From positions 1 through 6,658 of IMG/VR virus record IMGVR_UViG_3300007790_000263: a DNA stretch of 6,658 bases. One strand, given 5' to 3'. The DNA comes from a virus. Its lineage: Duplodnaviria; Heunggongvirae; Uroviricota; Caudoviricetes. The notes beneath the pieces were generated by a model that saw nothing but the letters and a program-made list of their open reading frames with translations, was not told where the DNA came from and ran no database searches. Positions 1 to 4,275 of the stretch are shown piece after piece. The position numbers and the translations under genes were made by a program. Within the stretch, counting starts at the first letter, position 1. Every line of letters begins with the position of its first letter.

Positions 1-314
1 CTACTCCCTGCTCAATATTTACTACAAATTTAACAATAAATTAAAACATATCAAACTAAACAATGGGGGGTAAGATTCACTCATGAAATGTATTAAAAAT
101 GATTCATCAGCTAGCCACAGTACTTTCTTACATACGACGTGCCTTCACTTTCAACTCCCGCCAACTCACCAATCAGGACAGGAAAGCAGGCAGAAATCCC
201 TCAAAAACCAAAAAAACAATTTTTATACTGAAAATCAACAAGTTAAACAATGAAAATTATCCTCCCCATCGATTTTCACCTCATCAAAAAGAGTTTTTTC
301 TAATATAGAATCCT

Positions 315-341
315 TTGTTTCATCAGTTTTTTTGTTATAAA
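315..341 (+). promoter_or_regulatory. Putative sigma70-type promoter for the membrane-protein/TIR operon (extended -10 TGtTATAAA at 333-341, weak -35 TTGTTT at 315-320)
   Basis: TGnTATAAA-like extended -10 about 30 nt upstream of the ATG at 373, followed by a GAGGA Shine-Dalgarno at 363-367. The -35/-10 spacing is short (~15 bp) and the region is AT-rich, so hexamer matches are easy to find by chance. Confidence 0.3.
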
Positions 342-372
342 GTATACTTTTGATCAAAGTCTGAGGATATTC

Positions 373-831
373 ATGAGTACAGAAAACTTACAACCAGAAC
401 ATCGTGATGACGGATTACCCGCTAAAATAGCAGCATTAGCAAGTCTGCAAGCCATAATTGCAAGGATGGCTTCAAATTCACAATTAATGAAAACGTGGGC
501 CATCACTATCGTTACTGGATTCATAGCTATCAAGTCGACTTTTGGTGGACTTGGGTATCTATCTTATCTAGTGCCGATTCTTATTTGCATTTCATTCTCC
601 TTTCTTGACTCTTATTATCTTTCTCAAGAAAAGATATTTAGAGATGTTTATAATAAATTAGCGGCCATTCCCGTTGGGAACGAAATGATGTACCTAGATT
701 TCAAAGGCGAAATATATAAAACTTCACAAGAAGAAAATAATTCATTAATGATTTGTTTCAAGTCCCCATCAATTAGTTTATTTTATATCCCAATGGCAAT
801 CATTTCTACAGTGATATTAATCATAGGATAA
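373..831 (+). CDS. Small membrane protein (152 aa, about three predicted TM helices); candidate effector or partner of the downstream TIR-like protein
   Basis: ORF from the track; GAGGA at 363-367 sits 5 nt before the ATG. Hydrophobic helix-length stretches at about aa 41-57, 59-78 and 133-152 (C-terminal ISLFYIPMAIISTVILIIG). Only 4 nt separate its stop from the next start, implying an operon. AT-rich codon usage matches the neighbouring gene. No family recognised by eye. Confidence 0.65.
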   Translation: MSTENLQPEHRDDGLPAKIAALASLQAIIARMASNSQLMKTWAITIVTGFIAIKSTFGGLGYLSYLVPILICISFSFLDSYYLSQEKIFRDVYNKLAAIPVGNEMMYLDFKGEIYKTSQEENNSLMICFKSPSISLFYIPMAIISTVILIIG

Positions 832-835
832 TATT

Positions 836-1654
836 ATGCTTGTTAAATTCAGAATAGATCGAAATACAATTACAAATAACAGCACAATTTTAAACGCTAA
901 TGACAACCATTTAATTTACTCAAACCTAAATGACACAGATATAAACTCAAAAATATTTGACGCTGTAAATGGTGAAATATCAGCAAAGAAACTAGCCGAC
1001 GAACTATTTCCTGAAAACGAACCACACATTTTTATATCTCATAGTAGCAAAGACGTAAATGTAGCAATAAGTCTAGCAAACACTCTTTATGCAAAATATA
1101 AGATAACATCTTTCATTGACTCCCAACTTTGGGGACATATTGACCACGCACTAAAGGAAATGCATAATCGATACTGCAAGATCCCCGGCTCATCTTATTA
1201 CCACTATGATAAATCTAATAACCTACTATCTCATATGCACGCCATACTAAGTATGGCTTTAATGAGAGTAATGGATAACGCTGACAGCGTTATATTTATC
1301 GAATCCGGCAACTCAATTTACCAATATATGGGAGATACTACCATTGCTCCCCAAGAAGCAATTGAAAAAACATCTGAAACATTATCTCCATGGATATCCT
1401 CTGAGGTGAATTTTGCAAATACCTTAAGATTGAAAGGCCATAAAGATAGAGAACAACCATTAATGGAAAGCACAGATTCATACTCTTTAAACAAGAGTAA
1501 TATTAAAGCAGACTCCTTACCCAAAATAATACATGAAGTCAACTTAAGTAAATTCATAGAGATAGACAACAAAAAATTCAAAGAGTCTTTATCATTAAAT
1601 GAAACAAATCCAATAAAAACTTTAGATATGATTTACCAAATATATGCTCAATAG
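836..1654 (+). CDS. TIR-like domain protein (ThsB-like / DUF1863-type), 272 aa, with N- and C-terminal extensions
   Basis: ORF from the track; AGGA at 823-826 upstream. Residues 64-72 (IFISHSSKD) match the first beta-strand signature of bacterial TIR/ThsB-like domains (compare vFfSfhyqD). TSFIDSQ forms a plausible second strand. SPWISSE (aa 184-190, Glu codon at 1403-1405) resembles the S-x-W-C-x-x-E-l motif that carries the catalytic Glu of TIR NADases. About 60 aa N-terminal and 70 aa C-terminal to the domain have no recognisable family. Confidence 0.7.
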   Translation: MLVKFRIDRNTITNNSTILNANDNHLIYSNLNDTDINSKIFDAVNGEISAKKLADELFPENEPHIFISHSSKDVNVAISLANTLYAKYKITSFIDSQLWGHIDHALKEMHNRYCKIPGSSYYHYDKSNNLLSHMHAILSMALMRVMDNADSVIFIESGNSIYQYMGDTTIAPQEAIEKTSETLSPWISSEVNFANTLRLKGHKDREQPLMESTDSYSLNKSNIKADSLPKIIHEVNLSKFIEIDNKKFKESLSLNETNPIKTLDMIYQIYAQ

Positions 1655-1682
1655 GTAGTTTTTATTTTTAGCATCTAATAAA

Positions 1683-1714
1683 CCGTTGGCACATCATATA
1701 CAACGTGCCAACGG
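1683..1714. terminator. Stem-loop at the island boundary: perfect 10-bp inverted repeat CCGTTGGCAC / GTGCCAACGG with a 12-nt loop; possible bidirectional intrinsic terminator
   Basis: Inverted repeat read directly (1683-1692 and 1705-1714), 28 nt after the TIR gene stop. The T-rich run lies on the left side, so it gives a U-tract (UUUAUU) for minus-strand transcripts; the plus-strand side has a poor U-tract. Confidence 0.45.
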
Positions 1715-1861
1715 AACGAGTCAATTACAATTATTTTATGGCAGGAAAAACTGACGAATCAATATCTGGTTCGGTTGCTGTATCAATACGGTTCAGCAAC
1801 ACCTAATATTTCTTCCATGCCGCCAGCAATGAGGTCTCCTCTGCCGCCACAATACCCAAAT

Positions 1862-2002
1862 CTACGGCATCCTGAAGCGGTGCAATATGCTCACCCTGAT
1901 TTTATCTTCAAAAATCCGGTCGCATCCTGCACAGTTCAACGCATTACGTTGTAGATCGGTATTCTGGTCATTTGTTGATACGCGTACATAGCCAATAAGC
2001 AT
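1862..2002 (-). pseudogene. Truncated serine DNA invertase (Gin/Hin/Pin/Cin family), N-terminal ~35 codons only
   Basis: Minus-strand ATG at 2002-2000 preceded by GGGAG. Codons 1-35 translate to [35 protein letters not shown], which matches the invertase N-terminus including the catalytic-Ser motif YVRVST, as recalled. After codon 35 the frame reads [11 protein letters not shown] and stops at 1862-1864; none of the three frames downstream resembles the rest of an invertase. Intact invertases are about 180-190 aa. Confidence 0.75.
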
Positions 2003-2028: not shown

Positions 2029-2421
2029 ATGATGCCATTTGCTCGTTATTTCTGCATTTTCATAAACGTTGGTTTGGGAGAAGCGGCTAAAAGGAATGTA
2101 GGGACAGGGGCGAATCAGATACCTGATATGGGTAGCTTCACGCTTTCTGTTTCAGGTACTGGATATCAAAAATTACCATCAGGTTTTATTCTTCAGTGGG
2201 GTTCAATCGGCGCACCAGGCATTGCACAGGATGTGGTAACCCATTTTCCGATTGCATTTCCAAACCGATGTCTGCGTGTTTTGGTCTCACAAGACTACAC
2301 ACCAGATAGCGGGGCTGTTGGTTATATTGCCTGCGCAGGTTTTAGTTCCGACCCGGTTAAATTTATATCCAGAGCCGGTACTCCAGGTCTCGGCGCTTCA
2401 TTTTTAGCGTTAGGCTGTTAA
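2029..2421 (+). CDS. Alternative tail-fibre C-terminal variable cassette (promoterless; in frame with the fibre constant region after inversion)
   Basis: ORF from the track. Its ATG at 2029 lies outside the invertible segment and has no proper RBS (AGGA abuts the ATG). From the crossover site at 2057-2082 the frame reads [10 protein letters not shown], with the same frame and GLGE junction as ENLGLGEG in the expressed fibre gene. TAA stop at 2419-2421 is followed by a good RBS and the tfa' start. Confidence 0.6.
2057..2082. other. Left invertase crossover site (hix/gix/pix-like 26-bp site, TTTTCATAAACG-TT-GGTTTGGGAGAA)
   Basis: Inverted relative to the site at 3925-3950: its right half GGTTTGGGAGAA is the exact reverse complement of the left half TTCTCCCAAACC of the other site. 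Has the AAACC-NN-GGTTT core architecture of hixL (TTCTTGAAAACCAAGGTTTTTGATAA, from memory). Lies 55 bp from the invertase start. Confidence 0.75.
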
Positions 2422-2442
2422 TTTAGCTATATGGAGTGAAAA

Positions 2443-2883
2443 ATGAATTACATATATTCCGCGACTACAAACTCTTTCTATCCACTGGAAATGAAAGAGG
2501 ATTACACTCAAGCTGACTCATGGCCAGATGATGCTGTTGAAGTTGATGAGCAGGTGTATATTGAGTTTTCCGGATTACCGCCGGAAGGAAAAATCCGTAT
2601 CGCTGGAGAAAATGGTTTTCCTGCATGGTCTGAAATTCCACCACCAACACCTGAGGAACAGATTGCTGCAGCCGAACTGGAAAAGCAGCAACTGATTAAT
2701 CAGGCCAACGATTATATGAACAGTAAACAATGGCCTGGTAAAGCGGCTATTGGTCGTCTGAAAGGTGAGGAACTGGCGCAATATAATCTGTGGCTGGATT
2801 ATCTGGACGCACTGGAGCTGGTCGATACTTCCAGTGCGCCAGATATTGAATGGCCTACGCCTCCGGCAGTTCAGGCCAGATGA
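2443..2883 (+). CDS. Tail fibre assembly protein, alternative-orientation copy (Tfa' / U'-like), 146 aa
   Basis: ORF from the track; GGAGTG RBS at 2432-2437. C-terminus DIEWPTPPAVQ carries the W-P-x-x-P ending typical of Tfa chaperones and parallels DVIWPELPEA in the convergent tfa. Lies directly downstream of the alternative fibre cassette. Confidence 0.75.
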   Translation: MNYIYSATTNSFYPLEMKEDYTQADSWPDDAVEVDEQVYIEFSGLPPEGKIRIAGENGFPAWSEIPPPTPEEQIAAAELEKQQLINQANDYMNSKQWPGKAAIGRLKGEELAQYNLWLDYLDALELVDTSSAPDIEWPTPPAVQAR

Positions 2884-3457
2884 CATCCGGCGCGGTGCTG
2901 GTATCTGTTGCCGTCACCGCGTCAATGTAATCCAGCACAGCGTTAAGCCGGGTTGTTTCTGCCTGCGTCAGTTTCCGCCCGGCCTGTAATTTCAGCTGAA
3001 TCAGACTAATGGAAGCCATTGCTGCATCAATCAGTGACTGGCGCTGTGCTTCTGCCGCTTCTACTGCGGCACCGTGTTGTGCCTCAGAATCTGTCACCCA
3101 TTTCTCACCATCCCATTTATCATATGTCGTTAACGGGACGATAGTGGTTGTATTTTCAGGGTAATCACCCGGAGCTGTGATTTCTTTTGCTTCTCCTGTT
3201 TCGGTGCTATAGATAATTTCACCGCGATGGTCTGGCATATATTCCCATGAGTTTAAATCTACTGAACGGCAGATTGCATAACCAGCCTTATATGTGCCAG
3301 GAGCATCTAAACAGGAATATGCCGGGATACCGACACCAACGGCAAGATATTCATTTGAAGTGGAAATATATTCCCGTGTTTCACCATCATAGTTATAGAC
3401 GGTAATATTCCCCGCCTTCGTGGCAATAAGTTCGCTATTTAATACGGCTTTATCCAT
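2855..3457 (-). CDS. Tail fibre assembly protein (Tfa / U-like chaperone), 200 aa
   Basis: ORF from the track. Its start overlaps the fibre stop (TAATG at 3455-3459). C-terminal DVIWPELPEA motif. Sits immediately downstream of the tail fibre, in the position of Mu U / P2 G. Confidence 0.8.
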   Translation of the reverse strand: MDKAVLNSELIATKAGNITVYNYDGETREYISTSNEYLAVGVGIPAYSCLDAPGTYKAGYAICRSVDLNSWEYMPDHRGEIIYSTETGEAKEITAPGDYPENTTTIVPLTTYDKWDGEKWVTDSEAQHGAAVEAAEAQRQSLIDAAMASISLIQLKLQAGRKLTQAETTRLNAVLDYIDAVTATDTSTAPDVIWPELPEA

Positions 3458-4275
3458 TATGCAGCTCTCACGATATAGTTAAATGCAATATTTCGTGGAC
3501 GGGTTTCGCTCCCACCTGTGTTACCAATACTCCCTCGTGTATGTAGCGTTGGTGATGGAATCAGAGTTCCTCCGGCATCGGCAGCATCAAGCCCCCGGCC
3601 TTGCGTATATGCTCTTCTGAAGATTGTCGCCAGTTCCCATTCCTCTTTTGAATCATACCCATCGTTGGCAACAACAATATGGCGGTGTTTTTCCAGCATC
3701 CCAGTCTGAATGCTCAATAAAGCACGTCCTGCATCAATACCACGCCCGTCATCCCATCCACGAATAAACTCACCACGGAGATCAGGTAGTTTCCCTGATG
3801 GATATGCTGTAGCAAGATGGGGATATTTCACCTTATCAAAGGCAGCGCCGTTGCATTTCAGCCAGCCCGTTGGCGGGGTTGCGGAGGGCCACGGAACAGG
3901 CACACCAACAGGTAATGCAGAGCCTTCTCCCAAACCAAGGTTTTCGAGAGCCGTTTTCACCGTGCCATCCGATTTGATATCACCAAACGGATTCTTGCGG
4001 CTCAGGTATTCAACAGCAAACCCCGATCCCAGCAATTCAACAAAACCGGGCAGATCACCATTATCAAGCACATCCCGTTGCGTTTTATCACTTACAAACT
4101 GGGCCAGAGCTGCAGCAATAAAGCTGGCCTGCCGAATAACCTTATTGACTTGCGCACTGGAGGCTTTCCCTGCTGTAAATCCGGATAAAAGCGCGGGCAA
4201 CGCTTCCCATTCCTCCTGCGATATAACATTGGCATTTCGATCCGTTGCAAACGCTTTAAAGTCATTTTTCGCCAT
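3457..4275 (-). CDS. Tail fibre protein (constant N-terminal part outside the invertible segment, variable C-terminal tip inside it)
   Basis: ORF from the track (longest form 3457-4293). I prefer the ATG at 4275-4273 (MAKNDFKAF...) because it overlaps the upstream stop as ATGA and has GGGGAG about 10 nt upstream, whereas the 4293 start has AGGAG only 1 nt from the ATG. C-terminus ...[19 protein letters not shown] matches the conserved ending of Tfa-dependent fibres (lambda Stf / T4 gp37 / Mu S type, from memory). The crossover site lies in-frame at ENLGLGEG. Confidence 0.8.
3925..3950. other. Right invertase crossover site (TTCTCCCAAACC-AA-GGTTTTCGAGAG) inside the tail-fibre gene
   Basis: 26-bp site with the AAACC-AA-GGTTT core, close to the hixL consensus. 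Inverted partner of 2057-2082. Falls at about codon 112-118 of the fibre gene, at the constant/variable boundary. Confidence 0.75.

Follow-up and report, generated by a model that had tools for sequence, protein, structure and literature searches.

A probable Thoeris-type ThsB with a putative catalytic glutamate, encoded in a mobile two-gene cassette of an Escherichia coli prophage

The window analysed here, a stretch of 6,658 nucleotides from a Caudoviricetes record (IMG/VR IMGVR_UViG_3300007790_000263), is part of the tail and baseplate region of an E. coli prophage, and its composition profile shows an island of low GC content at bases 1–1800. Within this island lies thsB (836–1654, plus strand), which encodes a TIR-domain protein of 272 amino acids. 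Whether this protein has kept the catalytic centre of an NAD+-consuming TIR, whether its long termini are additions to the TIR fold, and what it does beside a small membrane protein in a prophage are the questions that this locus raises. The protein is already known, as Yirmiya et al. (2025, bioRxiv 10.64898/2025.12.03.692087), who surveyed TIR defence systems, include its exact sequence in their Table S1; it appears there as IMG 2649505888 with the label ‘DUF2270 - Type V’ in TIR cluster 2734579397; its family is a known defence family. The finding is therefore correct but ordinary. The effector labels of that table are cluster-based and, by the authors’ own account, noisy (Yirmiya et al. 2025). 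An exhaustive profile search with the family returned 1,961 clusters at 50% identity, 1,223 of which had E ≤ 1e-30. We consider it probable that the 836–1654 protein is the ThsB of a Thoeris-type anti-phage signalling system, encoded in a 1.5-kb cassette of an E. coli prophage.

Fold and active site of the TIR protein

The ThsB model of PADLOC (PDLC00430) matches residues 36–269 of the protein with E = 7.7e-43. The Pfam profile TIR_2 (PF13676) covers residues 65–97 only and scores 15.8 bits, short of its gathering cut-off of 28. A phmmer search of the protein against PDB sequences gave nothing beyond one chance match, an NCBIfam search gave no useful match, and none of its Foldseek matches was significant. 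The protein has a flavodoxin-like TIR fold, as seen in the AF2 model (pLDDT 76, with 24 homologues as input). The N-terminal half of the model consists of strand A (residues 65–68), helix A (71–88) and strand B (92–94); the middle of the protein contains helices at 96–114 and 124–148 and strand C at 151–156, followed by a loop of poor order; and helix C (185–196) leads through a disordered loop (207–229) to strands at 233–235 and 241–243 and helices at 245–252 and 259–271. The canonical N-terminal half (1028–1132, plus strand), with strand A (IFISHS), helix A, strand B (SFID) and Trp99, is the only stretch with a significant profile alignment to solved TIRs. To AbTir, only residues 61–113 align significantly (hmmsearch E = 0.005; hhalign with the family profile, 1.7e-5). 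The AbTir alignments stop at residue 113, and the TIR_2 match is cut short, because a family-wide insertion follows in the BB-loop and helix-B region (residues ~100–130; 1133–1225, plus strand); both kinds of alignment are interrupted at this insertion in every family member tested. The insertion is family-specific and conserved (mean conservation 0.59), and its residues C114, Y122, Y124 and N128 occupy nearly invariant columns. A further peculiarity is the loop between strand C and helix C (residues ~166–181; 1331–1378), which has 27 amino acids in the enterobacterial clade, 10 more than the median of 17, is modelled with low confidence and directly precedes the active-site motif.

The putative active-site motif itself, S184-P-W186-I-S-S-E190, stands at the start of helix C (1385–1405, plus strand). 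An earlier note, made from the sequence alone, had singled out Glu190 of this motif as the candidate catalytic residue; its codon is indeed GAG at 1403–1405, inside the open reading frame of 836–1654 on the plus strand. In better-studied TIR proteins the established catalytic glutamates are E208 of AbTir and E85 of BcThsB (Manik et al. 2022; Ofir et al. 2021). The check that the note had proposed, a multiple alignment with characterised ThsB and TIR NADases, places Glu190 within the active-site column, the one that also holds AbTir E208 and BcThsB E85, and the residue is invariant in 146 representatives. The E-INS-i and L-INS-i modes of MAFFT agree on this column, and on W186 as the conserved Trp column (AbTir W204), when the family is aligned to 11 reference TIR domains, those of AbTir, BcThsB and nine further ThsBs, taken from PDB output and from Table S1 of Yirmiya et al. 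The arrangement of a catalytic Glu on helix C with a Trp four residues upstream is thus found as E190 and W186. Across the 146 representatives, which come from the best of the family and are ~25–68% identical to the 836–1654 protein, only eight columns are invariant: F66, S68, F93, D95, W99, S184, W186 and E190. That S184, W186 and E190 are among these eight means that the motif is more than a chance resemblance. T182, S184, W186, E190 and the FISHS strand are also invariant in the 24 homologues, at identities down to 27%. When the C-terminal half was aligned alone or with the insertions excised, hhalign paired W186 and E190 with AbTir W204 and E208 at a non-significant E = 0.82, and for this reason we relied on the MAFFT alignments with many reference TIRs. 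E190 further aligns with the Glu of the SPWI(Y/F)HEI motif in type V and type IX ThsBs. Judged by alignment and by a model of medium confidence (pLDDT 76), Glu190 occupies the predicted position of the catalytic glutamate.

The termini of the protein had been described in the earlier note as unexplained extensions, a description that does not survive comparison with the family, since neither end is peculiar to this protein; both are family-wide, with shared median lengths, and the C-terminal part belongs to the TIR fold. The 64 amino acids before strand A compare with a family median of 65 (range 54–86 in the 146 representatives), and the 76 amino acids after helix C with a median of 75. Among the 150 best representatives, almost every protein has a profile match that begins at position 1 and extends to ~250, and nearly all family proteins are 245–290 amino acids long. 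These end-to-end profile matches, which hold for about 2,000 family clusters, and the family-typical lengths indicate that the terminal regions are integral to the TIR subfamily and are not add-ons. The last 70 amino acids are not a tail; the second half of the TIR fold is predicted there, and a greedy hhalign path aligns ‘KIIHEV’ to ‘ILPIWHKI’, a strand of AbTir, and sets the final helices of the two proteins against each other. The supposed richness of this region in K, N and S is non-significant (33% in the last 70 amino acids vs 25%, p ~0.2). An N-terminus rich in N, T and D had also been proposed, and residues 1–60 are enriched (33% vs 17% in the core; permutation p ~0.01), but because the family median is only 19.5%, the enrichment is a trait of the AT-rich enterobacterial variant and not of the family.

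The N-terminal element (residues 1–64; 836–1027, plus strand) is a variable, family-wide region with a mean top-residue frequency of 0.36 vs 0.66–0.72 in the core; it is modelled with a strand at residues 3–8 and helices at 33–43 and 50–57 (pLDDT 58–89), and ends in a conserved (W/L)FP motif that precedes strand A. The loop from helix C to the predicted strand D (residues 207–229; 1454–1522, plus strand) has a pLDDT below 50 and a conservation of 0.28, the lowest in the protein. Overall, the mean top-residue frequency is 0.28–0.39 in the most variable parts and 0.59–0.72 in the core. On account of this sequence variability, the N-terminal 64 amino acids, the C-terminal 76 amino acids and the two variable loops are the best candidates for recognition of a trigger, a role with which the variability is compatible and of which it is not proof.

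The membrane partner and the mobile cassette

The gene directly upstream (373–831, plus strand), whose stop codon lies 4 nt before the start codon of thsB, encodes a helical membrane protein of 152 amino acids that matches PDC-M50A of PADLOC (E = 3.7e-26). Its AF2 model (pLDDT 81) has long helices at residues 14–57, 62–98 and 132–151. Together with hydrophobic segments conserved in 48 homologues, these helices give the protein the three membrane helices of a type V effector; a crude hydropathy scan counts 2–4 segments per homologue. We presume that it is a signal-activated membrane effector. R31, S36 and K40, on the N-terminal amphipathic helix, are invariant in the 48 diverse homologues, and a conserved LDxYYLxQER motif follows TM2 in the partner family; these are candidate ligand-binding residues. 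PDC-M50A also stands next to a ThsB-like TIR in four further loci of our set (L002, L005, L008 and L009), and a literature search for ‘PDC-M50’ found no paper mentioning it.

Yirmiya et al. (2025) label the partner as a DUF2270/ThsF-type effector. When it was compared with Pfam DUF2270 (PF10028), no Pfam match was obtained even at E ≤ 10, and NCBIfam gave no match. PF10028 does match 6 of the 48 relatives; these matches all stay under the 25-bit cut-off (best E = 0.004) and cover the TM1–TM2 hairpin only. The partner family is very large: a profile search returned no fewer than 4,150 clusters (90% identity), and the top 120 of these matches carry no Pfam annotation. As the family goes unrecognised by Pfam DUF2270, we keep ‘type V’ for this cassette as the published label and the best functional analogy, one that the DUF2270 profile does not bear out at the Pfam level. 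A Macro (type II) or SLATT (type VII) identity of the partner was ruled out, there being no such Pfam match.

The pairing of the two genes extends far beyond this prophage. An M50A-like gene is directly adjacent to the TIR gene, on the same strand, in 56 of the 79 species-representative loci (16 upstream and 40 downstream of the TIR), which span at least eight phyla, and lies within 3 kb in a further six. It accompanies every TIR that is 48–54% identical to the validated ThsB of Bacillus thuringiensis, and the pairing persists in metagenomic loci at 27–34% TIR identity, among them one in which the genes stand in tandem (L005) and one on a small plasmid (L009). The family of the 836–1654 TIR is therefore one with a conserved operon and a dedicated effector gene, and the pair is found outside prophages on plasmids and chromosomes of many phyla.

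Some family members occur in more elaborate settings. In the Pseudomonas genome locus L003 (2004–5696) and the metagenomic locus L004 (3620–5741), a family TIR is an additional ThsB in a multi-TIR locus, with a SLOG cluster 3 effector in the former and a ThsA-Macro effector (type II-like) in the latter. One TIR subfamily thus serves several effector types, and its position beside ThsA-Macro or SLOG effectors marks the TIR as the signal-producing component. The tandem on the metagenomic contig L005 (130–3790; also in L006) reads M50A-like protein (137 amino acids), a TIR of 383 amino acids, family TIR (255), M50A-like protein (168) and family TIR (255); the 383-residue protein is a different TIR, with a nucleoside deoxyribosyltransferase-like signal, and the module is duplicated there. 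The plasmid pair (L009, 1113–2430) adjoins MobC/NikA, a replicase and a RelB/ParE toxin-antitoxin pair.

In the window, the two genes form a mobile, presumed defence cassette (264–1834, plus strand) whose GC content of ~0.29–0.36 contrasts with 0.45–0.55 in the flanking tail genes. Strains KOr019, P4 and FP4 share the first 2,083 bases of the window at 100% identity. The cassette (window 264–1747/1834) recurs at 84–85% identity in another prophage, a lambdoid one that occupies the icd site, again at the tail-fibre end, and at 71% identity on a mobilizable Pectobacterium plasmid of 5.2 kb (NZ_CP034278.1); a DNA search of GenBank phage records found no copy. At the icd/e14 site of E. coli UMB200201_11 (L002, 3245–7391), the copy (85%) adjoins an AAA-family ATPase and a ‘retron system putative HNH endonuclease’, and the end of this prophage may thus be a small defence hotspot.

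Downstream of thsB, a hairpin with a 14-bp stem (1683–1714) lies 29 nt past the stop codon, before the remnant of a tail-fibre-assembly pseudogene, and is probably the transcription stop of the cassette. The terminator-like site was called and scored on the minus strand and has its A-run upstream on the plus strand, and the hairpin may therefore act in both directions. Beside the cassette stands the truncated 5' remnant of a Pin/Gin-type DNA invertase gene (1898–2002, minus strand), recognised by the Pfam Resolvase N-terminal domain on the open reading frame 1865–2038 (E = 1.1e-6) and annotated in KOr019 as ‘recombinase family protein, incomplete, missing C-terminus’. The adjoining segment at 2064–3943 is an invertible tail-fibre segment of the Mu G / P1 C / e14 P type, bounded by 20-nt inverted repeats at 2064–2083 (AAACGTTGGTTTGGGAGAAG) and 3924–3943 (CTTCTCCCAAACCAAGGTTT); it contains alternative fibre C-termini and two tail-fibre assembly genes, and has the opposite orientation in KOr019 at 99.9% identity. 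As the invertase gene is cut to its first 35–58 codons, inversion either needs an invertase in trans or is older than the truncation.

Proposed mechanism and competing readings

We propose a signalling mechanism that starts from the observed fold, the position and invariance of Glu190, the family membership, the conserved gene pairing and the mobility of the cassette, and that infers enzymatic activity, the nature of the signal, how the effector works and the defence itself. Phage infection would switch on ThsB through some trigger, for which there is a precedent in another ThsB that directly senses phage capsid (PMC12578639). Glu190, assisted by Trp186 four residues upstream on helix C, would then cleave NAD+ and cyclise ADP-ribose. 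The resulting small signal would bind the co-transcribed 152-residue membrane protein (373–831), which would oligomerise or open, damage the membrane and so abort the infection. Two ThsBs of TIR cluster 2734579397, one of type V and one of type IX, make 3'cADPR, and only upon phage infection (Yirmiya et al. 2025). The 836–1654 protein is 30% identical to the former (E = 3e-29) and 31% to the latter (E = 2e-31), and homology makes 3'cADPR its most likely product, a call that we would put at about even. The signal is uncertain at 30% identity because 3'cADPR failed to activate the type IX system and one variant of type V (Yirmiya et al. 2025).

That uncertainty bears on the alternative that survives best, although we hold it to be somewhat unlikely: a Thoeris-like pair in which the signal of the enterobacterial clade is not 3'cADPR, and could be 2'cADPR, canonical cADPR, His-ADPR or a new molecule, and in which the partner is no true DUF2270. 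The 30–31% identity to the 3'cADPR-making ThsBs leaves room for such a change of product, the partner fails the Pfam DUF2270 test, and the enterobacterial loop near the active site is 10 amino acids longer than usual (27 vs a median of 17). Type II Macro effectors, which use His-ADPR, are among the partners of this TIR family, and some type V and type IX effectors are unresponsive to 3'cADPR. Both tested members of the TIR cluster nevertheless made 3'cADPR although their effectors differ, and the partners share homology throughout the clade in which close relatives (48–54% identical) of the validated ThsB are found.

More speculatively, the enterobacterial clade may not be a true type V at all and may instead represent a portable ‘sensor-TIR’, an idea to which we give a low probability. 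Here phages would be recognised by the variable N-terminal 56 amino acids, the strand C–helix C loop and the C-terminal surface, the helix-B insertion (C114, Y122, Y124, N128) would tune the chemistry of the product, and a Pfam-unclassified family of three-TM effectors (135–150 amino acids, at least 4,150 clusters) might answer a signal other than 3'cADPR.

It is improbable, in our view, that the TIR protein is itself a toxic effector that depletes NAD+, with the membrane protein as its sensor, anchor or regulator. Many bacterial TIRs behave in this way, for instance those of CBASS, Pycsar and SPARTA, the partner has no recognisable nucleotide-binding domain, and Yirmiya et al. (2025) caution that untested configurations may use the TIR as an NAD+-depleting effector, leaving that role open. 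The tested members of the TIR cluster, however, accumulate signal alone, with no toxicity reported for them alone; the same family is elsewhere paired with the dedicated receptors ThsA Macro and SLOG; and in the tested type V system, added 3'cADPR was toxic only to cells that carried the system. Very improbable is a prophage moron without signalling, such as a superinfection-excluding membrane protein with a non-enzymatic TIR-like adaptor or scaffold, since the typical moron site at the tail-fibre end and the sub-threshold TIR_2 score (15.8 vs 28 bits) are outweighed by the invariance of S184, W186, E190, strand A and D95 at ~25% identity, which would be unexpected of a scaffold, and by the occurrence of the pair on plasmids and non-prophage chromosomes of many phyla.

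If the Thoeris-type signalling pair is the right reading, two ‘hypothetical proteins’ of an E. coli prophage become a compact defence cassette with a catalytic centre that is intact by sequence, which is of use for annotation and for the prediction of host range in phage therapy. In E. coli, the single type V system tried so far, that of Vibrio cholerae, did not protect the cells, and no type V is yet known to work in this host. As a short piece of DNA (1.5 kb) that occurs naturally in E. coli and is easily cloned, the cassette would be a convenient model of type V-like Thoeris. It raises the questions of what triggers this ThsB subfamily, what roles the N-terminal element and the helix-B insertion play, and whether PDC-M50A is DUF2270/ThsF.

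Comparison with known Thoeris systems

The PADLOC models PDC-M50 and PDLC00430 match the window genes over essentially their full length, PDC-M50 being a bioinformatic candidate only. The type I ThsB of B. cereus MSX-D12 (PDB 6LHY, 8BTN) and AbTir (7UWG, 7UXU) have 135–190 amino acids, whereas the window protein has 272; to their architecture it adds the 64-residue N-terminal element, the helix-B insertion of ~30 amino acids and the strand C–helix C loop of 27. Type II, with its TM-Macro ThsA, and type VII, with SLATT, resemble the window pair in combining a TIR sensor with a membrane-targeting effector, and some family TIRs reside in type II-like loci, but the window partner itself has neither a Macro nor a SLATT domain. 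The type IX ThsB of B. cereus VD021 belongs to the same TIR cluster, shares 31% identity across 227 residues and produces 3'cADPR in an infection-dependent manner; its effector, in contrast, is a TIR-SLOG protein in place of a small membrane protein, and 3'cADPR alone does not trigger its toxicity.

The closest parallel is the type V system of B. thuringiensis DAR 81934 (ThsB with ThsF/DUF2270; Yirmiya et al. 2025). The window TIR differs from its ThsB in being only 30% identical, in having a longer strand C–helix C loop and in residing in an E. coli prophage, and the window partner falls below the Pfam DUF2270 threshold. In the window the effector gene precedes the TIR gene, whereas the TIR comes first in the majority of family loci. 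Both ThsBs nevertheless belong to TIR cluster 2734579397, with the same length and architecture, and share the N-terminal element, both insertions and the SPWIxxE motif; and both are encoded in a two-gene operon with a small three-helix membrane protein.
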